Numbered from the stretch's first letter, positions 19,524-61,560 are shown. The stretch: 64,000 bases of DNA from Micromonospora sonneratiae (GCF_042679305.1 NZ_JBHTMP010000017.1:13551-77550), one strand, 5' to 3'. Numbers and translations are program-made. Notes: generated by a model from the sequence alone, not told the origin.

Positions 19524-20549
19524 ATGCCCATCGCTTCCCCCGAGGTCTACGCCGAGATGCTCGACCGTGCCAAGGCCGGCCGGTACGCGTATCCCGCGAT
19601 CAACGTGACGTCCTCGCAGACCCTCAACGCCGCCCTGAAGGGCTTCGCCGACGCAGAGAGCGACGGCATCATCCAGGTGTCCACCGGTGGCGCGGAGTAC
19701 CTCTCCGGTCCGAGCATCAAGGACATGGTCAGCGGTGCGGTCGCCTTCGCTGCGTACGCCCGCGAGGTGGCCAAGAACTACCCGGTGAACATCGCGTTGC
19801 ACACCGACCACTGCCCCAAGGACAAGCTGGACAAGTTCGTCCGTCCGCTGATGCAGATCTCGAAGGAGCGGGTGGCGCGCGGTGAGGAGCCGCTGTTCCA
19901 GTCGCACATGTGGGACGGCTCCGCCGTGCCGGTCGCCGAGAACCTGGAGATCGCCGCCGGGCTGCTGGACGAGGCCGCCCAGGCCAAGATCGTCCTGGAG
20001 ATCGAGGTCGGCGTCGTCGGTGGTGAGGAGGATGGCGTCGAGAACGCCATCAACGACAAGCTCTACACCACCATCTCCGACGGTCTGGCCATGGTCGAGG
20101 CGCTCGGCCTCGGCGAGAAGGGCCGCTACATGGCGGCGCTGACCTTCGGCAACGTGCACGGCGTGTACAAGCCGGGCAACGTCAAGCTCCGCCCGGAGAT
20201 CCTCCGGGAGATCCAGGACGCGGTCGCCGCCAAGTACGGCAAGGACAAGCCGCTCAGCCTGGTCTTCCACGGCGGGTCCGGTTCGCTGCTCTCCGAGATC
20301 CGCGAGGCGCTCGACTACGGCGTGGTGAAGATGAACATCGACACCGACACCCAGTACTGCTTCACCCGGCCGGTCGCGGACCACATGCTCCGCAACTACG
20401 ACGGCGTGCTGAAGGTGGATGGCGAGGTCGGCAACAAGAAGCTGTACGACCCGCGGGTCTGGGGCAAGCAGGCTGAGGCGGGCATGGCCCAGCGGGTCGT
20501 CGAGGCGTGTGAGCACCTGCGCTCGACGGGCACCAAGCTCGGCAAGTAG
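19524..20549 (+). CDS. fba: Class II fructose-bisphosphate aldolase
   Basis: YAYPAINVTSSQTLNAAL, LHTDHC, MWDGS, FGNVHGVYKPGNVKL, LVFHGGSGS. Confidence 0.95.
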   Translation: MPIASPEVYAEMLDRAKAGRYAYPAINVTSSQTLNAALKGFADAESDGIIQVSTGGAEYLSGPSIKDMVSGAVAFAAYAREVAKNYPVNIALHTDHCPKDKLDKFVRPLMQISKERVARGEEPLFQSHMWDGSAVPVAENLEIAAGLLDEAAQAKIVLEIEVGVVGGEEDGVENAINDKLYTTISDGLAMVEALGLGEKGRYMAALTFGNVHGVYKPGNVKLRPEILREIQDAVAAKYGKDKPLSLVFHGGSGSLLSEIREALDYGVVKMNIDTDTQYCFTRPVADHMLRNYDGVLKVDGEVGNKKLYDPRVWGKQAEAGMAQRVVEACEHLRSTGTKLGK

Positions 20550-25007: not shown

Positions 25008-26300
<1,293 letters not shown>

Positions 26301-27540: not shown

Positions 27541-28794
27541 GTGCGCGTACTTCTCATCGGAAGCGGCGGGCGGGAGCATGCGCTCGCGCTCGGCCTGGCC
27601 GCTGATCCCTCGGTCCAGCAGCTCACCGCCGCCCCGGGCAACCCCGGCATCGCCACCGTCGCCGAGTTGCGCCAGGTGGACGCCGTCGACCCGGCCAGCG
27701 TCGCCGCGCTTGCGGTGGAGACCGGCGCCGACCTCGTGGTGATCGGCCCGGAGGCCCCGCTGGTGGCCGGGGTCGCCGACGCCGTACGCGCCAAGGGCAT
27801 CGCCTGCTTCGGCCCGTCCGCCGCCGCCGCGCAACTGGAGGGCTCGAAGGCGTTCGCCAAGGAGATCATGACGGCGGCCGGGGTGCCGACCGCCCGCGCC
27901 CCCACCTGCGTGACCGCCGAAGAGGCGGAACACGCGCTGGACGACTTCGGTGCGCCGTACGTGGTCAAGGACGACGGGCTGGCCGCCGGAAAGGGCGTGG
28001 TGGTGACCGACGACCGGGCCGTCGCGCTGGCCCACGCGGCTGCCTGTGAGCGGGTGGTGGTCGAGGAGTACCTCGCCGGACCCGAGGTTTCGCTGTTCGT
28101 GGTCACCGACGGCGAGGCAGCGGTGCCGCTGCTCCCGGCACAGGACTTCAAGCGGATCGGCGACGGCGACACCGGCCCGAACACGGGTGGCATGGGGGCG
28201 TACGCGCCACTGCCCTGGGCGCCGGCCGGACTGGTCGACGAGGTCATGCGCGACGTGGTGCATCCGACGCTGGCCGAGATGCGTCGCCGGGGCACGCCCT
28301 TCGCCGGCCTGCTCTACGTCGGCTTGGCGATCACCGCCACCGGTCCGAAGGTGATCGAGTTCAACGCCCGGTTCGGCGACCCGGAGACCCAGGTCGTACT
28401 CGCCCTGCTGGAGACGCCGCTGGCCGGGCTGCTGCACGCCGCCGCGACCGGCACGCTCGGCCAGCAGCCACCGCTGCGCTGGCGGCCGGGTTCGGCGGTC
28501 ACCGTCGTGGTCGCCGCCGCGGGCTACCCGGACGCGCCGCGCACCGGTGATGTGATCACCGGTGCGGACCAGCCCGGGATCATCCACGCCGGCACCCGTC
28601 GGGACGCCGACGGTACGTTGCGCTCCTCGGGCGGCCGGGTCCTCTGTGGTACGGCCATCGGCCCGGATCTCACCGCTGCGCGGGAAGCGGCGTACGCCCT
28701 GGTCGACGGGGTTGGCCTGGCCGAGTCCCAGCATCGGCGGGACATCGCCCTGGCGGCGGCGCAGGGACGGATCCAGCCCCCGACCGCCGGCTGA
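27541..28794 (+). CDS. purD: Phosphoribosylamine--glycine ligase
   Basis: GTG start. VRVLLIGSGGREHALA, ATP-grasp core YVVKDDGLAAGKGV, GDTGPNTGGMGAY, EFNARFGDPETQ. Confidence 0.95.
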   Translation: MRVLLIGSGGREHALALGLAADPSVQQLTAAPGNPGIATVAELRQVDAVDPASVAALAVETGADLVVIGPEAPLVAGVADAVRAKGIACFGPSAAAAQLEGSKAFAKEIMTAAGVPTARAPTCVTAEEAEHALDDFGAPYVVKDDGLAAGKGVVVTDDRAVALAHAAACERVVVEEYLAGPEVSLFVVTDGEAAVPLLPAQDFKRIGDGDTGPNTGGMGAYAPLPWAPAGLVDEVMRDVVHPTLAEMRRRGTPFAGLLYVGLAITATGPKVIEFNARFGDPETQVVLALLETPLAGLLHAAATGTLGQQPPLRWRPGSAVTVVVAAAGYPDAPRTGDVITGADQPGIIHAGTRRDADGTLRSSGGRVLCGTAIGPDLTAAREAAYALVDGVGLAESQHRRDIALAAAQGRIQPPTAG

Positions 28795-43264: not shown

Positions 43265-44575
43265 TCACCGGGACTGGCTGACCGGCACCGTCCCGAGCGG
43301 CACCGTCCCGACCGGCACCGGCGAGTCGGCCGGGGCCGGGTCCAGCAGTGGCCCTCTCACCGACTTGTCCTCGGCCGTGGGGCCGTGGGAGGTGAGCACC
43401 ACCGGGCAGGCCAGCTCGTCCTCGACCGTGGCGACCCAGTCGCGGGGTGGTTCGTCGTACCCGGGTCGGGAGCGCAGCAGTCGACCGGTCAGCGCGGCCT
43501 GCCGGTCCAGGTCCCCGACCGGACCCGGTGCGAGCCGGTCCGTCCAGTCGTAGCGGCGACAGATCCGTAGCTGCGGACCGGCCAGGTCCAGGTGCGTCAG
43601 CGCCAGTCCGTCCACACCGCCGGCCACCTCCAGCGCGTACCGGTGGGCCACCGCGTCGAAGTGCCCGAACCGGAACCGGCCCTGCCACGGGTTGGTCGGG
43701 TTGCGCGGGTCGGCGAACGGCAGGGTCGGGTCCTCGGTCACCAGTGGCCCGGGACCGTGCCGGGTGGTGGCGGTACGCAGCACGCCGAGTCGGGTCGCCG
43801 TACCCGACATGCCGGCCTCCGCCAGCAGCCGCTCGGCGTTGGTGAACGTCGTCGTGCTCCACGTGGTGTACGGGTGGAAGCCGTGCCACTCGTCCAGCAG
43901 CACGCCCTGGGCGCCCTCGAAGACACAGGTCCCGGACCGCAGCAGCGTCGTCAGGTGATTGCCATCCACTATGGACACGCGCTCGGCGAAGGCGGTGAAG
44001 GCGGTGACACAGTCGTCCACCGGTGGGGCGTCCAGCGGGCCGAGTTCGGCGGTGAGCCGGTCACGCAGCGCGGCCAGCCGCTGGCGCAGCACGGCAGGCG
44101 TGACGCAGTCGCCCACCCGGGGTGCCTCGCCGGGGTACGCGAGGTCGTACGCCATCGTCTCGCCCACCCCCATGCCGCAGGAGCCGTGCCGGTCGGCTCC
44201 CCGGGCGACCTCGCGGGCCCGGTTCGCGGCCCGGTGGTACGGCGTGGTCAGCAGCGCCGCCCCGTCCACGGTGAGCCGGTCGAGCGCGTCCGGCACCCCG
44301 ACGGCGGCGAGGTGGTCGGCCTCGACGGCCAGCGCCAGCGGGTCGACCACCATGAACCGGGACAGGTGGGTTCGCACACCGGGTCGGAACGTGCCCGCTC
44401 CGAACTGCGCGAAGGTGTGCCAGCGGCCGTCGGGCAGGACGACGTTGTGCGCCGCCTGCCCGCCCCCGTTGAAGCGGACCACCGCGTGGACCGGCCGTGT
44501 CGCACACAGCCAGTCCACGACGGTGCCCTTGCCGGCGTCCCCGTACCCGAGGTCGACCACGATCACATGGCTCAC
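43265..44575 (-). CDS. Divergent adenylosuccinate-synthetase-family paralogue
   Basis: GTG 44575 overlaps the vWA stop (GTGA). DLGYGDAGKGTVVD (P-loop), GGGQAAHNV, SCGMGVGETM, LTHLDLAG align with the purA motifs in this window but are substituted. Confidence 0.85.
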   Translation of the reverse strand: MSHVIVVDLGYGDAGKGTVVDWLCATRPVHAVVRFNGGGQAAHNVVLPDGRWHTFAQFGAGTFRPGVRTHLSRFMVVDPLALAVEADHLAAVGVPDALDRLTVDGAALLTTPYHRAANRAREVARGADRHGSCGMGVGETMAYDLAYPGEAPRVGDCVTPAVLRQRLAALRDRLTAELGPLDAPPVDDCVTAFTAFAERVSIVDGNHLTTLLRSGTCVFEGAQGVLLDEWHGFHPYTTWSTTTFTNAERLLAEAGMSGTATRLGVLRTATTRHGPGPLVTEDPTLPFADPRNPTNPWQGRFRFGHFDAVAHRYALEVAGGVDGLALTHLDLAGPQLRICRRYDWTDRLAPGPVGDLDRQAALTGRLLRSRPGYDEPPRDWVATVEDELACPVVLTSHGPTAEDKSVRGPLLDPAPADSPVPVGTVPLGTVPVSQSR

Positions 44576-45534
44576 AGCCGGGTGATCCGATCCGCGTCGG
44601 CCCGGACGGCGGGCAGCGGTGACACCGTGGTCGCCCGCCGGTTGGTACCCACCCGGGCGAGTGCCTTCGACACCGTCCTGGTGGTGGCCGAGCCCGCCTC
44701 GTCGAGGTCGTGCAGGCCGGTGTCGAGGTCGACGGCACCCTCGGCGAGGCCGATGGTGAGCGCGATCGTCTCGCAGACCGCGTTCAGGTCGTCCAGTTCG
44801 AGGACGTTCTGACCGAGCAGGTCCCGCCAGAAGTCCAGCACCCGCGCGTCCCCGGCGTACCCGGTTCCGGCCGGCAGCAGGTAGTAGGTGTCGTACCTAC
44901 GGGTCACCTCGTGGATCAGGTGGGCCAGCGGAACGGCCTCGGTCAACTCGTCGCCGATCAGCCTGCTCACCTCGCGCGGCTTGACCTCCGGGTAGGCCAG
45001 TTCGTCGCCGATGATGAACAGGTAGCCGCGGTGTCCCCGCCGCTCGAAACAGTCGATCGAGGTGTGCCGGGCCATGAAGTACAGGGCCAGCTCGTACGAC
45101 TCGGTCATCTGCCCGCCGCCGCCGCCCTCCAGCACGATCCGGCCGAGGTCGTCGTCCATCCGGTTGTCGGACTCGAACTGCCCGACCTGGAGCGGTACCC
45201 GGTCGCAGGTGGCGTCGCCGATCGCGCCGAACATGATCTGCGGATCGCGGGCGTACCCCTTGCGTTGCAGCAGGCCGAGCAGTTGCGGGAGCTTGGTCTG
45301 GAGCACCCGGGGTATGCGACGCATCGAGCCGGTGACGTCGAAGAGGACGGCGATCGCCAACGACTCGGGGTGTTCGGCCGAGTCACGGCTCTCCCGTGCC
45401 GCGCCGGACGGGTCGAGCGCCGGGTGGACCGTACGCGCCCCGCTGTCGCTGTAGGCGAAGGCGCTGGTGCCGGTCGACCGCCGATAGCGGTCGGCCGCGT
45501 CGTACACGTCGGTGGACCAGGTTCCACTACCCAT
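44572..45534 (-). CDS. von Willebrand factor A (vWA) domain protein
   Basis: ATG 45534 follows GGAGG. MIDAS VLFDVTGSM. Downstream GAIGD and FIIGDE strands are typical of a vWA Rossmann fold. Confidence 0.8.
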   Translation of the reverse strand: MGSGTWSTDVYDAADRYRRSTGTSAFAYSDSGARTVHPALDPSGAARESRDSAEHPESLAIAVLFDVTGSMRRIPRVLQTKLPQLLGLLQRKGYARDPQIMFGAIGDATCDRVPLQVGQFESDNRMDDDLGRIVLEGGGGGQMTESYELALYFMARHTSIDCFERRGHRGYLFIIGDELAYPEVKPREVSRLIGDELTEAVPLAHLIHEVTRRYDTYYLLPAGTGYAGDARVLDFWRDLLGQNVLELDDLNAVCETIALTIGLAEGAVDLDTGLHDLDEAGSATTRTVSKALARVGTNRRATTVSPLPAVRADADRITRL

Positions 45535-45583
45535 GTCAGCCTCCAGGTCGGGTTGGGAAGGATCGAATCCAGCGGACTCGAAG

Positions 45584-46573
45584 TCAGTGGGACGAGTCGG
45601 TGGTCAGGGAGAAGGGACGGAAGACGCGCGGTCCGTACAGGCGCTCGAGCACGTCGTCCAGCTCGCCGAGCAGCCGCCAGGCGTCGTCGGGTCGGGCGCG
45701 CAGCGCCCGTTGGGTGCAGCCGTCGGCGAAGGCCCGCAGCGCCCGAGGGATGCGGTCGCCCATCAGGTACGTCATGCAGCGCGTCGCCATGGCGATGTCG
45801 GTGCCCGGACCGGGCCGGTGTCGCGCCGGCACCTCGGGCGGGTACCAGTCGGCGTACGCCGGTACCAGCGCCGGGACGGTGTCCTCGCCGATCACCGAGT
45901 AGCACCAGTCGACGAGCACCACACCGTGCTCGGTGGGCTCGATGAGTACGTGGTCGGGCAGCACCGCGCCGTGCACCACGCCGGCCCGGTGAGCGAGACC
46001 GAGCGCGACCAGCAGCCGCCGCCACATCCAGGCCGCGTCCCGGGGGTCGAGTCCGTTCGGGTAGGCCCGGTGGACCTCGGCGAGGCTGTGCAGGTCGGGC
46101 GCGGTGGCGACCACGTTGATCACGCGTCGGGCGGCGGTCGCCGGGTCCCGGTGCCGGAACGTCTCGACCAGCCGGGGCACGTACGGCAGATAGCGGGGGT
46201 CGCCCCGCTCGGCCAGCGTGCGCAGGGCGGTGGCCTCGCGTTCCATCAGGTCGTTGTTGGTCGGGTCGCGGGGGAGTTTGAGCCAGCGGCCCGACCCGAC
46301 GTCGTACAGGTCGGTCAGGTCGCCGACGTGTACGACGGCACCGAGGCGGTACGTCCCGACGATGGTGACCGCGTGCCGGGCCCGCCAGCGGGTGGTGACC
46401 CGGATGAACGCTTCGGTGGCGGCGGCCCGGTCGGCTGCGGTGGCGGTGCCGAGCCGATCCGGGTGCAGGGCGGTGACCAGCCGGCGGTACTGGCGGTCCG
46501 GCGCGACGCCGCCGAACAGTTCCTCGTCGGTGCGGGCCGTCGTGACGTGGCGTAGCGCCTCGACGAGGTTCAC
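45584..46573 (-). CDS. J-domain (HPD) fused to APH/protein-kinase-like domain with altered catalytic motif
   Basis: GTG 46573 overlaps the Nudix stop (GTGA). YRRLVTALHPDRLG (J-domain HPD). Kinase-like VVHGAVLPDHVLIEP and VVLVDWCYS (HGD replaced by HGA; DW in the DFG/IDW position). Confidence 0.75.
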   Translation of the reverse strand: MNLVEALRHVTTARTDEELFGGVAPDRQYRRLVTALHPDRLGTATAADRAAATEAFIRVTTRWRARHAVTIVGTYRLGAVVHVGDLTDLYDVGSGRWLKLPRDPTNNDLMEREATALRTLAERGDPRYLPYVPRLVETFRHRDPATAARRVINVVATAPDLHSLAEVHRAYPNGLDPRDAAWMWRRLLVALGLAHRAGVVHGAVLPDHVLIEPTEHGVVLVDWCYSVIGEDTVPALVPAYADWYPPEVPARHRPGPGTDIAMATRCMTYLMGDRIPRALRAFADGCTQRALRARPDDAWRLLGELDDVLERLYGPRVFRPFSLTTDSSH

Positions 46574-47322
46574 CGGATCGTCTCCTCCCGCGCCGGGCGC
46601 AGCAGCGCCGGATGCAGGAGTCGGGCGTCGCCGGCCCGGTAGAGCCGGGCCCGGGGGCCGCCGCGCGCCCCACCGCGTTCGGTGGTCACGCCGGTGCTCT
46701 CCACGAAGCCGGGCACCGAGAGCACCTTCCGGTGGAAGTTGCCGGCGTGCAGCGCATGCCCCCACACCGTCTCGTAGACGGCCCGCAGCTCACCGATGGT
46801 GAACTCGTCACCGAGGAAACGGGTGGCCAACGGGGTGTACTCCAGCTTGGACCGGGCCCGCTCCAGGCCGTCGGCGACGATTCGCTCATGGTCGAAGGCG
46901 AGTTGCCGGGTGGGCAGGTCGGCCACGGGTAGCCAGGCCGCGTCCTCGGCGTCGGTGCCGGCGGCGGGATCGGGCAGGTCGGGTGCGAACGCGAGATGGG
47001 CGACCGACACCACCCGCATCCGTGGGTCGCGGTCAGGTGCGCTGTAACTGGCCAACTGCTCCAGGTGTACGCGTCGCAGCCGCTCGCCGCCGAGCCCGGT
47101 CTCCTCGGCCAACTCGCGCCGTGCGCAGGCGGCCAGGTCCTCGTCCGGCCGTACGAAGCCGCCGGGCAGCGCCCAGAAACCCGAGTACGGCGGTTCGGCG
47201 CGACGGATCAGTAGCAGGTGCAGCGCGTCGTCACGGATGGTCAGCGCGACCACGTCGGCGGTCACCGCGACCGGGGGAAACGCCTGTGGGTCGTACGCGG
47301 CGAGGAAGTCCTCTTCGGTCAC
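46570..47322 (-). CDS. Nudix hydrolase + C-terminal winged-HTH (NrtR-type regulator)
   Basis: GTG 47322 follows GAGGAG. Intact Nudix box GFVRPDEDLAACARRELAEETGL. C-terminal FTIGELRAVYETVWGHALHAGNFHRKV is typical of the NrtR DNA-binding domain. Confidence 0.85.
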   Translation of the reverse strand: MTEEDFLAAYDPQAFPPVAVTADVVALTIRDDALHLLLIRRAEPPYSGFWALPGGFVRPDEDLAACARRELAEETGLGGERLRRVHLEQLASYSAPDRDPRMRVVSVAHLAFAPDLPDPAAGTDAEDAAWLPVADLPTRQLAFDHERIVADGLERARSKLEYTPLATRFLGDEFTIGELRAVYETVWGHALHAGNFHRKVLSVPGFVESTGVTTERGGARGGPRARLYRAGDARLLHPALLRPAREETIR

Positions 47323-47339
47323 AGCGCCAGTTCTCCTCG

Positions 47340-47359
47340 TTCTGAGAAAATCTCAAGAA
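47340..47359 (-). promoter_or_regulatory. AT-rich near-palindrome upstream of the Nudix-regulator operon (candidate operator)
   Basis: TTCTGAGAAAATCTCAAGAA (arms TCTGAGA / TCTCA(A)GA), about 35% GC in a ~72% GC genome, 18-37 nt upstream of the GTG start. Confidence 0.4.
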
Positions 47360-47406
47360 GAGAATAACTGGTGATCGTTTCGGCCACCAGTCCCCGGTAC
47401 GGTCGA

Positions 47407-47961
47407 CTACCTCGTGAACGGAGACCTCGGAAGCTGCGGCAGGGGTGGCCGATCACCCGCCTCGTCGATGACGGTGATCTGCCACCGGACGACCGGGGCT
47501 GCCAGCATCCGGCCGGCGTACCAGCCGAGGGTGCCGGCGGCGATGAGGATCGCCCCGGAGAGGTAGTAGACGGTCAGGTCGCCGAGGTCGACGGTATGGG
47601 CGACCCGGTTCAAGATGATCAGCAGCCCATCCCGATCCAGACAGTGCGGACCGCGGACCTCATACCGTCCGAAGTGTGTCAATGCAACCCCCAGGCTGGC
47701 ACCGGTGCCAGCCTGGGGAAACGCATCCTCAGCGAGGCAGTGGTTCGAGCGCCTCGCCGGCCGACTCTGCTCGCCAGCCGCCAGGGGCCCGTGCCCCGGC
47801 ACGAGGATGTCGAACACCTCGGACCGCATGCGTGAGCAGACCGAGGGCGGCGCATCCGGGTCGACGGTGCCGCTCCGCCAGCCCTGCCACATTCCGAAGG
47901 CCGCGACGATCAGGGCACCGGCGGTCAGCACGGCCAGCCGGGTCCTGCTCTCCGTTCCCAT
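47407..47961 (-). CDS. Hypothetical protein with N- and C-terminal TM helices
   Basis: LAVLTAGALIVAAFGMW and YYLSGAILIAAGTLGWYAG flank a ~110-aa Cys-containing domain. No known motif recognised. Confidence 0.5.
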   Translation of the reverse strand: MGTESRTRLAVLTAGALIVAAFGMWQGWRSGTVDPDAPPSVCSRMRSEVFDILVPGHGPLAAGEQSRPARRSNHCLAEDAFPQAGTGASLGVALTHFGRYEVRGPHCLDRDGLLIILNRVAHTVDLGDLTVYYLSGAILIAAGTLGWYAGRMLAAPVVRWQITVIDEAGDRPPLPQLPRSPFTR

Positions 47962-56649: not shown

Positions 56650-58074
56650 GTGACGAGTATCCCGAACGTCCTTGCCAACCGGTACGCCTCGGCAGAACTG
56701 GCCGCCCTCTGGTCGCCGGAGGAGAAGATCCGGATGGAACGGCGGCTCTGGCTGGCCGTACTCCGGGCGCAGCGGGATCTCGGCATCGCGCTGCCCGACG
56801 GGGTGGTCGAGGCGTACGAGCGGGTGCTCGACCAGGTCGACCTAGCCTCGATCGCGGCCCGGGAGCGGGTCACCCGGCACGACGTGAAGGCGCGGATCGA
56901 GGAGTTCAGCGCGCTGGCCGGGCACGAGCACATCCACAAGGGCATGACCTCGCGGGACCTCACCGAGAACGTCGAGCAGCTACAGGTACGCCGCTCGCTG
57001 GAGCTGATCCGGGACCGGGTGGTCGCCACCCTGGCCCGGCTGGCCCGCCTGGCCGTGGAGCACTCCGACCTGGTGCTGACCGGCCGGTCGCACAACGTCG
57101 CGGCGCAGGCCACCACGCTGGGCAAGCGGTTCGCGTCGGCGGCCGAGGAACTGCTGATCGCGTACGAGCGGCTGGACGACCTGATCGACCGGTACCCGTT
57201 GCGTGGCATCAAGGGGCCGGTCGGCACCGCCGCCGACCAGCTCGACCTCTTCGACGGCGACCCGGAGAAGGTCGCCGAGCTTGAGCGCCGGGTCGCCACC
57301 CACCTCGGCTTCTCCCGGGTGCTGGACAGCGTCGGCCAGGTCTACCCGCGTTCGATCGATTTCGACGTGGTGTCCGCGTTGGCGCAGACGGCCGCCGCCC
57401 CGTCGTCGCTGGCGACGACCATCCGGCTGATGGTTGGCCAGGAGCTGGCCACCGAGGGCTTCAAGCCGGGGCAGGTCGGCTCCAGCGCCATGCCGCACAA
57501 GATGAACACCCGGTCCAGCGAGCGGGTCAACGGCTTCGCGGTGATCATCCGGGGTTACCTGTCGATGATCGGCGAGCTGGCCGGTGACCAGTGGAACGAG
57601 GGCGACGTCTCCTGCTCGGTGGTCCGCCGGGTGGCGCTACCGGACGCCTTCTTCGCCGCCGACGGGCTGTTCCAGACGTTCCTCACCGTGCTCGACGAGT
57701 TCGGCGCGTACCCGGCGGTGATCAACCGCGAGTTGGACCGGTTCCTGCCGTTCCTGGCGACCACGAAGATCCTGGTCGCGGCGGTACGTCGGGGCGTCGG
57801 CCGGGAGGTCGCCCACGAGGCGATCAAGGAGCACGCGGTCGGCGTGGCGCTGGCCATGCGGGAGCAGGGGGCGACCGAGAACGACCTGTTCGACCGGCTG
57901 GCCGCCGACGAACGGCTGGGCCTGACCCGTACCGAGATCGACAAACTGGTGGCCGACCGGGCCGACTTCGTCGGCGCGGCTCCGGCGCAGGTACGGGCGG
58001 TCGCCGGGCGGGTCGCCAACGTGGTCGCGGCGCACCCGGAGGCAGCCGCCTACCAACCCGCCCCGATCCTCTGA
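56650..58074 (+). CDS. purB: Adenylosuccinate lyase
   Basis: LANRYASAELAALWSPE, GRSHNVAAQATTLGKR, GSSAMPHKMNTRSSE signature. Confidence 0.95.
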   Translation: MTSIPNVLANRYASAELAALWSPEEKIRMERRLWLAVLRAQRDLGIALPDGVVEAYERVLDQVDLASIAARERVTRHDVKARIEEFSALAGHEHIHKGMTSRDLTENVEQLQVRRSLELIRDRVVATLARLARLAVEHSDLVLTGRSHNVAAQATTLGKRFASAAEELLIAYERLDDLIDRYPLRGIKGPVGTAADQLDLFDGDPEKVAELERRVATHLGFSRVLDSVGQVYPRSIDFDVVSALAQTAAAPSSLATTIRLMVGQELATEGFKPGQVGSSAMPHKMNTRSSERVNGFAVIIRGYLSMIGELAGDQWNEGDVSCSVVRRVALPDAFFAADGLFQTFLTVLDEFGAYPAVINRELDRFLPFLATTKILVAAVRRGVGREVAHEAIKEHAVGVALAMREQGATENDLFDRLAADERLGLTRTEIDKLVADRADFVGAAPAQVRAVAGRVANVVAAHPEAAAYQPAPIL

Positions 58075-60616: not shown

Positions 60617-60880
60617 GTGCCTCGCGTCGTCGTCGACGTCATGCTCAAGCCGGAGATTCTTGATCCCCAGGGCCAGGCTGTCGCAAACGCGCTGCCGCGG
60701 CTGGGCGTCAACGATGTGTCCTCCGTACGTATCGGCCGCCGGGTCGAGATCGAGTTCTCCGGTGAACCGGACCTCGACCGCGCCCGGGAGATCGCGGACA
60801 AGCTGCTGGCCAACCCGGTGATCGAGGACTTCTCGATCCGGTTGGTCGAGGCGGACGACACCGAGGGCGCTCGGTCGTGA
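60617..60880 (+). CDS. purS: Phosphoribosylformylglycinamidine synthase subunit PurS
   Basis: GTG 60617 follows [32 protein letters not shown]. Confidence 0.9.
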
Positions 60881-61556
60881 CCGCCCGCGTCGGTGTGGTG
60901 ACCTTCCCCGGTTCACTCGACGACGGGGATGCCGCCCGGGCGGTACGGATCGCCGGTGCCGAGGCCGTACGCCTCTGGCACGACGACCCGGACCTGCACG
61001 GCGTCGACGCCGTGGTGCTGCCCGGCGGTTTCTCCTACGGCGACTACCTGCGCTGTGGTGCCATCGCCCGGTTCGCCCCGGTCATGCAGACGATCGTGGC
61101 CGCCGCCCAGGGCGGAATGCCGGTACTCGGCATCTGCAACGGCTTCCAGATCCTGTGCGAGTCGCACCTGCTGCCCGGCGCGTTGACCCGCAACGAGCAC
61201 CTGCACTTCCGCAACCGCGACCAGGTGCTACGCATCGAGTCGGCGGGTACGGCGTGGACCAACGTGTTCCAGCCCGGCCAGGAGGTGCTCGTCCCGGTCA
61301 AGAACGGTGAGGGGCGCTACGTCGCCGACCAGCGCACCCTGGACGAGCTTGAGGCGACCGGTCGGGTGGTGGCCCGCTACGTGGGCGGCAACCCGAACGG
61401 CTCGCAGCGGGACATCGCGGCGATCACCAACGAGGCCGGCAACGTCGTCGGCATCATGCCCCACCCGGAGCACGCCGTGGAGGCGCTGACCGGCCCCTCT
61501 CTCGACGGCCTCGGCTTCTTCACCTCGATCCTCAAGCACCTGGCGGGAGCGCCGGC

Positions 61557-61560
<4 letters not shown>
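60877..61560 (+). CDS. purQ: Phosphoribosylformylglycinamidine synthase glutaminase subunit PurQ
   Basis: GTGA overlap with pur[21 protein letters not shown] (Cys nucleophile), MPHPE. Confidence 0.95.

Follow-up and report, generated by a model that had tools for sequence, protein, structure and literature searches.

A conserved module of a divergent PurA-like protein, a von Willebrand factor A protein and a J-domain/kinase-like fusion in large phages and in Micromonospora

Introduction

In adenylosuccinate synthetase (AdSS, the product of purA), residues N38, T129, T239 and R143′ hold the 5′-phosphate of inosine monophosphate (IMP), and T300, T301, R303 and R305 hold L-aspartate. The TTGRxRR loop, N38, T129 and R143 are conserved in the known AdSS enzymes and in the related PurZ enzymes, both of which use aspartate. 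The hallmark of PurZ is a Ser in place of Asp13 (10.1101/2025.10.22.683976). Here we describe an operon in a 64-kb stretch of the Micromonospora sonneratiae chromosome (NZ_JBHTMP010000017.1:13551-77550), referred to below as the window, in which a divergent PurA-like gene follows genes for a Nudix-type regulator, a J-domain/kinase-like fusion (hereafter J-kinase) and a von Willebrand factor A (vWA) protein. The last three of these genes form a triad that recurs as a unit in large phages and in bacteria.

The other products of the operon also recall described systems. The TerY-P triad consists of a vWA protein, a Ser/Thr kinase and a PP2C phosphatase, and MoxR-vWA systems pair a MoxR AAA+ ATPase with a vWA protein. 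Viral J-domain proteins that hijack host Hsp70 include the polyomavirus T antigens and Rki of phage RB43. The NrtR family comprises Nudix-related, ADP-ribose-responsive repressors of nicotinamide adenine dinucleotide (NAD) metabolism.

An earlier reading of the window (the original prediction) knew of no described pathway, signalling or defence system with this combination of genes. In agreement with this, a full-text literature search, in a library that is not exhaustive, returned no paper describing the module; genome announcements list merely a ‘serine/threonine kinase’ and a ‘PurA-like adenylosuccinate synthetase’. One candidate description, PMC13622651, was rejected as it concerns unrelated MoxR-vWA systems. 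PADLOC 2.0 gave no hit for the vWA or PurA-like proteins, its only hits being generic ones for the kinase and Nudix proteins. Because no paper was found in the literature searched and there is no PADLOC model for the vWA or PurA-like proteins, we class it as a previously undescribed type of system whose parts have known folds.

Operon layout

Four open reading frames (ORFs) were read from the sequence on the minus strand, running from 47322 to 43265 (positions count from the start of the window). The features of the operon are as follows.

46570-47322, minus strand: Nudix-winged helix-turn-helix (Nudix-wHTH) gene; 250 aa, NrtR-type regulator with an N-terminal Nudix domain and a C-terminal winged helix
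45584-46573, minus strand: J-domain/kinase-like gene; 329 aa, putative pseudokinase fusion
45535-45583, minus strand: intergenic gap of 49 nt with a ribosome-binding site, GGAGG standing 8 nt ahead of the vWA ATG as read directly
44572-45534, minus strand: vWA gene; 320 aa, vWA fold with a complete metal ion-dependent adhesion site (MIDAS) motif
43265-44575, minus strand: PurA-like gene; 436 aa, PF00709 family, its start overlapping the vWA stop (GTGA)
47334-47364, no strand assigned: two tandem TTCTC-N5-GAGAA palindromes, operator-like, directly 5′ of the Nudix-wHTH gene and overlapping its ribosome-binding region

Sequence reading places the GTGA start/stop overlaps at 46573-46570 and 44575-44572, and no terminator-like sites were found within the operon. 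The proposed single-operon architecture stands, and every sequence detail that we checked in the four-gene arrangement, including both GTGA overlaps and the 49-nt gap with its GGAGG, proved accurate. The start of the second gene was set at 46573 and not at 46765, the start of a longer ORF, as a 329-aa M. sonneratiae protein is 100% identical over its full length. The tight spacing extends to relatives: the gap between the J-kinase and vWA genes is 1-60 nt in all 74 of 74 actinobacterial loci, and the vWA and PurA-like genes overlap in 55 of 79.

Occurrence and inheritance of the triad

To survey bacteria, the vWA profile was run against one genome per species and the 80 closest loci were taken; nearly all are from Micromonosporaceae, with a few from Streptosporangiales. 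The cluster occurs in all 80. Wherever these loci are complete, the gene order is Nudix, J-kinase-like, vWA and PurA-like, even where the flanks differ; in four of the 80 the J-kinase gene has been wholly or mostly lost. Plasmid records place the module on Rhodococcus and Tsukamurella megaplasmids and on alphaproteobacterial megaplasmids (Agrobacterium, Acetobacter) as well. On pLPS8 of R. opacus the order is J-kinase-like, vWA, adenylosuccinate synthetase and NUDIX. An A. vitis plasmid has a NUDIX gene divergent to a hypothetical gene followed by vWA and adenylosuccinate synthetase, and an A. persici plasmid carries a hypothetical gene, vWA and adenylosuccinate synthetase. The ‘hypothetical’ proteins of these alphaproteobacterial loci give weak DnaJ hits.

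Among phages, a tblastn search with the vWA protein against 50,697 INPHARED records identified 220, mostly from Mycobacterium phages (201 records, of the Bxz1 type, cluster C) together with large phages of Rhizobium (10) and Vibrio (6) and a few others. The PurA-like gene was present in 233 INPHARED records (202 Mycobacterium, 10 Rhizobium, 6 Vibrio). In mycobacteriophage LRRHood the genes are arranged as gp253 (‘serine/threonine kinase’), gp254 (the vWA homologue), a small ORF and gp256 (‘PurA-like adenylosuccinate synthetase’), and in Vibrio phage Va1 and Rhizobium phage TM39 an adenylosuccinate synthase gene directly follows the vWA gene. A scan of IMG/VR confirmed at least 411 relatives among 600 candidate stretches, and the best 80 of these at least 411 lie mostly on contigs of 100-437 kb. 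The triad families correspond to the PHROG families phrog_3043 (‘kinase’), phrog_2971 (‘unknown function’) and phrog_1211.

For 84 phage loci we found the complete triad in 68, vWA with PurA-like in 9 and J-kinase with vWA in 5. De novo clustering of neighbouring genes in the same loci gave only three recurrent families, present in 84, 77 and 74 loci, the next family reaching 16. In all, the J-kinase, vWA and PurA-like triad was counted in 133 bacterial, plasmid and phage loci, and among 158 vWA/PurA-like pairs the PurA-like gene lies downstream on the same strand in 157. Phages and bacteria with GC contents of 27% to 75% inherit and exchange the triad as one unit, and it is above all a large-phage module. 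The co-conservation check on the four families therefore gave a strong result, with co-occurrence far beyond chance and only these families recurring around the phage vWA gene. The set of four genes as first proposed needs amending in one respect: its members are co-conserved, but the core is the triad, and the Nudix-wHTH gene is an accessory found in the actinobacterial clade, on Rhodococcus and Agrobacterium plasmids and, as NrtR-like Nudix genes (E 1e-36 to 1e-40), in 7 of the 84 phage loci.

A neighbour-joining (NJ) tree of the vWA proteins places the chromosomal copies of actinobacteria in a single clade inside the diversity of the viral contigs (local GC 27-71%), and those on alphaproteobacterial plasmids together with the copies of Rhizobium and Vibrio phages. 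This pattern suggests that the module passed from phages to bacteria.

Several phages carry NAD-salvage-type genes (a Nampt-like phosphoribosyltransferase and an NMN adenylyltransferase/Nudix) 1-4 kb 5′ of the vWA gene, for example at L083:1666-3269 (Rhizobium phage TM39) and in five IMG/VR loci such as L120:2717-4141. These neighbours may be a link to NAD/ADP-ribose metabolism, or may simply reflect a nucleotide-metabolism neighbourhood.

The PurA-like protein

The last gene of the operon had been described as a divergent AdSS homologue, and profile searches agree: the protein matches PF00709 at 2.7e-58 (residues 5-350), NF010355 aligns over residues 4-403, and AdSS entries in the PDB match down to an E-value of 2e-31 (E. 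coli AdSS). It scores well under the purA equivalog cut-offs (155 bits versus 402 for NF002223 and 113 versus 395.55 for TIGR00184), and it shares 35% identity with the product of the canonical purA of the window (25011-26300). It was rightly called a paralogue, as purA, purB and other purine genes occupy the same window.

We mapped first 66 and then 150 members of the subfamily by alignment onto E. coli AdSS (PDB 1ade and 1kjx) and onto the window's own PurA; the percentages given here refer to the 150. Much of the PurA framework is kept, namely a full-length fold, the P-loop G12-D13-x-G-K16-G (98-99%), H41 (99%), Q224 (99%), T239 (98%), R272 (100%), D333 (98%) and the C-terminal SxGP. The substrate-binding residues differ from those of PurA. 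N38 is replaced by Gln in 98% of members, T129 by Cys or Val, and the segment IGTTGRG by (R)HGSCGxG (H 97%, S 92%, C 81%). R143, which in AdSS is supplied in trans by the dimer partner, is absent from the subfamily. V273 is His in 99%, the subfamily has new invariant His residues at 126 and 273, and the aspartate loop GTTTGRxRR reads N..N.(W/F)QGxFR (W 80%, Q 97%, single Arg 99%). Its place, always after a vWA gene, further sets the PurA-like gene apart from purA.

Since the catalytic and GTP-binding residues are kept, GTP-driven activation of a 6-oxopurine is likely, and the enzyme would appear to have retained this step while presenting different acceptor pockets. The original prediction had suggested an aspartyl/succino-nucleotide-like product. 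Such a product is doubtful, given that a different sequence stands in place of the aspartate-binding TTGRxRR loop across the whole subfamily. Judged by these residues, the PurA-like proteins appear to be a distinct subfamily, neither a plain PurA isozyme nor PurZ.

The comparison with PurZ deserves separate mention, as both are phage-borne PurA paralogues with an altered substrate specificity, predicted in the present case. PurZ uses deoxyguanosine monophosphate (dGMP) and aspartate together with DatZ and MazZ, whereas the present subfamily keeps Asp13, has lost the aspartate loop and is partnered by a vWA protein and a J-domain pseudokinase. The NCBIfam PurZ model scores the window protein at 31.2 bits against a cut-off of 300, and no DatZ/MazZ-type Z-cluster genes recur among the neighbours in the 84 phage loci. 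An identity with PurZ was rejected on the retention of D13 (98%) and on this score. The family is labelled ‘2-aminooxy adenylosuccinate synthetase’ in phrog_1211 and in GenBank records NC_067270.1 and NC_054717.1. This name seems to have been taken over from PurZ and does not suit a subfamily that keeps Asp13.

The vWA protein

No Pfam, NCBIfam or PDB sequence match was found for the vWA protein, nor did the vWA-family profile find a relative of solved structure. The AlphaFold2 (AF2) model has a predicted local distance difference test score (pLDDT) of 93.7 and a predicted template modelling score of 0.90, and a Foldseek search with it retrieved integrin beta-I and alpha-I domains and vWF A3 with probability 1.0. 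The MIDAS residues D66-V-T68-G-S70 and D177 are invariant or nearly so in the family. The fold match and the conserved D66, T68, S70 and D177 substantiate the earlier assignment of a vWA protein with a DVTGS MIDAS motif.

The vWA protein is the hub of the module. It matches phrog_2971, of ‘unknown function’, at 1.5e-71, and clustering at 50% identity divides its family into 1837 clusters; ten diverse representatives all come from metagenomes. A Met-Gly N-terminus is present in 158 of 158 vWA proteins with a PurA-like neighbour. The C-termini mostly end in a hydrophobic residue, with 101 unique sequences ending in RL, and the window copy has a disordered tail that ends in RL.

Apparent natural fusions of vWA and PurA-like proteins were considered and rejected. 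P0361, P0388 and P0475, whose high-GC gene calls are frameshifted, contain Arg-rich stretches read out of frame, and P0473 is a vWA homologue with an intein insertion. The intein-like insertion in P0473 lies exactly at the invariant vWA strand KGY|FIIGDE. Many mycobacteriophages of cluster C have a vWA match in pieces spread over about 1.7 kb, with an ‘HNH endonuclease’ annotated there. Homing elements seem to target the vWA gene.

The J-domain pseudokinase

The J-kinase protein carries an HPD tripeptide at residues 37-39. Pfam made no J-domain call for it; hhalign of the family against the J-domain of E. coli DnaJ gave a probability of 95.5% (E 1.6e-8) with the HPD motifs aligned. In the AF2 model, residues 1-60 have pLDDT values of 80-91 and HPD 37-39 lies between helices 25-36 and 46-67, and the J-domain is the only trustworthy part of the model.

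The kinase-like part matches PknA weakly (E about 1e-3), with VHGA at the HRD position and DW at the DFG position. The window protein has His for the catalytic-loop Asn, and DW(C/S) is found in place of DFG. Pfam gives APH at 20 bits against a cut-off of 23.2 and no Pkinase hit. Foldseek matches of the model are all protein kinases and weak (E about 2e-3, template modelling score about 0.3), because the AF2 model is poor. The protein matches the PHROG kinase family phrog_3043 at 7.8e-52. Gp253 of LRRHood is 35% identical to it and shares the HPD, VHGA and DWCYS motifs, and the family alignment has VHGA as its consensus, HPD in most members and a DFG Asp that is not invariant. The absence of the catalytic Asp as a family consensus and the variable DFG Asp fit a pseudokinase, which we take the kinase-like domain to be on these motifs. 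In this the findings match the fusion first proposed, a J-domain with HPD joined to a kinase-like domain reading HGA, the former through the hhalign result and the latter through VHGA in the PknA alignment.

A variant module occurs in an uncultured 485-kb phage (LR745208.1; L084, 4761-7718), where a fusion of DnaJ with an active-looking Pkinase domain is followed by vWA. The fusion protein matches DnaJ at 1e-14 and Pkinase at 7e-29 with HGD and DFG intact, the vWA protein is without the Met-Gly N-terminus, and a pyruvate-kinase-barrel-like ORF (PF00224, 32.5 bits) takes the place of the PurA-like gene. This single case suggests that the J-kinase/vWA pair is an adaptor unit able to serve different enzymes.

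The Nudix-wHTH regulator and its palindromes

The first gene product matches Pfam NUDIX (PF00293) at 1.5e-23 and NrtR_WHD (PF21906) at 3.5e-11, and its Nudix box GX5EX7REUXEEXGU, read directly, is intact, just as had been reported for a Nudix-wHTH protein. It resembles NrtR in this architecture and in having palindromic candidate sites 5′ of its own operon. It differs in that the genes beside it are the triad and not those of NAD biosynthesis or salvage, in that it reaches 128.5 bits on the NCBIfam NtrR model NF050029 against an equivalog cut-off of 400, and in that the candidate operator sequence is lineage-specific.

The two TTCTC-N5-GAGAA copies are the sole matches to this motif in the 64-kb window, and an alignment of upstream regions shows the motif to be conserved from Micromonospora to Streptosporangiales. 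Of 87 loci, 74 have it within 120 nt 5′ of the Nudix gene, where its density is 11.5 per kb compared with 0.006 per kb in the remaining locus sequence, an enrichment of approximately 2000-fold. The motif is not in the phage and plasmid copies of the module. Autoregulation of the operon by the NrtR-type protein through these palindromes would be a natural interpretation of their placement.

Homologues of the same Nudix-wHTH architecture adjoin the module in phage contigs and plasmids. All copies retain the winged helix, but the Nudix box has degenerated in those of Rhodococcus and Agrobacterium, a pattern that favors regulation over catalysis as the role of the protein. The recurrence of the gene in three different arrangements points to a functional rather than a positional link with the triad. 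The Nudix-wHTH gene is the accessory fourth member of the module, and in the actinobacterial clade it heads the operon.

Genomic surroundings

The immediate flanks of the operon are fatty-acid-type genes, encoding an acyl-CoA dehydrogenase, SCP2, TetR, a MaoC dehydratase, an SDR and a thiolase. A 184-aa ORF on the minus strand (47407-47961) lies directly 5′ of the operon; it has no NCBIfam match and no tblastn match in the 80 related genomic loci. The same chromosomal stretch holds fba (19524-20549), purA (at the position given above), purD (27541-28794), purB (56650-58074) and purQ (60877-61560), with purL probably next after purQ.

Discussion

The likeness of the module to vWA-kinase conflict modules is that a gene for a MIDAS vWA protein adjoins one with a protein-kinase fold; the differences are that its kinase lacks the catalytic Asp and carries a J-domain, and that the third partner is PurA-like. 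Neither a PP2C phosphatase nor a MoxR AAA+ ATPase is recurrent in the 165 loci examined, and membership of the TerY-P and MoxR systems was rejected for want of these partner genes. The TerY-type analogy drawn earlier holds as far as a vWA gene beside a kinase fold; it is only loose, because the kinase-like domain reads as a pseudokinase and there is no PP2C or MoxR partner. Like viral J-domain proteins, the fusion joins an HPD J-domain to a domain for target binding, from which recruitment of host Hsp70 would follow; here the partner domain is a predicted pseudokinase, the fusion belongs to a conserved enzyme/vWA module, and there are bacterial chromosomal copies.

We tentatively read the locus, with a probability of roughly 0.4, as a phage-derived, Hsp70-coupled module for a non-canonical purine-nucleotide ligase, domesticated in Micromonospora and repressed by a nucleotide-sensing regulator. 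The PurA-like enzyme would phosphorylate a hypoxanthine-type nucleotide at its 6-oxo group with GTP and couple to it an amine other than free L-aspartate, giving a non-canonical N6-substituted purine nucleotide in place of adenylosuccinate. The vWA protein would bind the enzyme or its target through the MIDAS; its synthesis would keep a fixed ratio to that of the enzyme, the two genes being on the same strand and often translationally coupled. The J-domain pseudokinase would dock on the vWA/enzyme pair, whose assembly, activation or remodelling would fall to the host DnaK/Hsp70 that it recruits. The NrtR-type protein of Micromonospora would sit on the TTCTC-N5-GAGAA sites and hold the operon off until released by a nucleotide ligand, which may be ADP-ribose-like or may be the substrate or product of the pathway itself. 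The role of such a module is most likely to manipulate the purine or NAD-linked nucleotide pool in phage-host conflict or under nucleotide stress.

A number of our observations weigh against this interpretation. The proposed substrate change rests on residue identities aligned to E. coli AdSS, and the new invariant His residues could restore IMP binding, so that the enzyme may carry out a canonical reaction. The PurA-like gene of Vibrio phage Va1 (6971-8083) keeps Asn38, has lost Asp333 and reads SRTSINT where others read T(H/C)LD, so that the subfamily signature varies among the most distant phage members. The AF2 model of the J-kinase (30 close homologues) has a pLDDT of 62 overall, the kinase-like part being poor. 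In four Micromonospora/Phytohabitans loci (L027, L056, L058 and L066) the J-kinase gene is absent or a stub and the Nudix gene runs almost straight into the vWA gene, and in the Vibrio and Rhizobium phages no J-kinase gene adjoins, so the J-protein is dispensable in some settings. The direction of transfer from phage to bacterium depends on a midpoint-rooted NJ tree.

It is because the new invariant His might rebuild the IMP site that the most serious rival, which we nonetheless consider unlikely, is plain auxiliary AMP synthesis, with a PurA isozyme boosting the flux from IMP to AMP during infection or stress and the vWA and J-proteins stabilizing or regulating it. The full-length PurA fold, the kept catalytic residues D13, K16, H41 and Q224 and the guanine-specific D333 all agree with an isozyme, purB is available in the host, and phage modules are often found among nucleotide-metabolism genes (RNR, Nampt, NMNAT/Nudix). 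Such an enzyme would be expected to look otherwise at its substrate sites: the TTGRxRR loop and N38, T129 and R143 are replaced in 97-99% of the 150 members, the scores are far below the purA equivalog cut-offs, and for any PurA an obligatory vWA partner would be without known precedent. Somewhat less probable again is a bacterial anti-phage or abortive-infection system, in which NrtR would sense NAD+ breakdown (as ADP-ribose), the vWA/pseudokinase pair would sense infection, and the PurA-like enzyme would deplete GTP/IMP or make a toxic nucleotide, the phage copies being decoys or weapons against rivals. Conflict systems are known to include vWA-kinase modules, plasmid copies have AbiEii, T6SS vgrG and IS6 elements in their vicinity, and PADLOC returns kinase-like hits (MkoA at 3e-9, PD-T4-6) and a Nudix hit to the candidate PDC-S07. 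These points have to be set against the distribution of the module, most of whose diversity is in large lytic phage genomes and whose Micromonospora operon occupies a syntenic core region between fatty-acid and purine genes, as well as against the lack of PADLOC hits for the vWA or PurA-like proteins and the absence of the Nudix regulator from most phage copies.

A further reading, which we think improbable, would have the PurA-like enzyme couple a 6-oxopurine nucleotide, driven by GTP, to the alpha-amino group of Gly2 of the vWA protein once Met1 has been removed. Such protein ‘purinylation’ would be chemically analogous to adenylosuccinate formation, but with free aspartate unused, and presentation or release of the modified protein would depend on DnaK brought in by the J-domain pseudokinase. 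It fits the Met-Gly start of all 158 vWA proteins, the change of the aspartate-loop Arg/Thr residues to an aromatic residue and Gln, and the fixed order of the vWA and PurA-like genes. A PurZ-like DNA-base pathway, in which phage DNA would be built with a modified (deoxy)adenylate precursor made by the enzyme (2-aminoadenine, for instance, or an N6-modified adenine), is more doubtful still. A phage-borne gene with non-canonical substrate pockets and the ‘2-aminooxy’ label of phrog_1211 and some GenBank records are in its favor; D13 is kept in 98% of members whereas PurZ has Ser (10.1101/2025.10.22.683976), the PurZ score is 31 bits against 300, no datZ/mazZ-type genes recur nearby, and DNA modification would be hard to square with repressor-controlled copies kept stably in bacterial chromosomes. 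That the genes are accidental neighbours and not one functional unit is hard to credit at all, given the start/stop overlaps and a set of genes conserved at each of the sampled loci despite changing flanks, across phyla and phages.

The names ‘adenylosuccinate synthetase’, ‘serine/threonine protein kinase’ and ‘2-aminooxy adenylosuccinate synthetase’ are likely to be misleading for members of the module. If the reading of a Hsp70-coupled nucleotide ligase is true, an unrecognized nucleotide reaction tied to host Hsp70 would be present in hundreds of sequenced phages, in many large phages that are uncultured, and in an entire antibiotic-producing family of actinomycetes. The PurA superfamily would gain a third functional class beside PurA and PurZ, the large phage family phrog_2971 of ‘unknown function’ would have its first role, and a J-domain pseudokinase would serve as an adaptor in prokaryotic viruses. 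Among the sequenced phages are approximately 200 classroom-isolated cluster C mycobacteriophages that grow on M. smegmatis, and as tractable hosts and phages exist, the system is directly testable.

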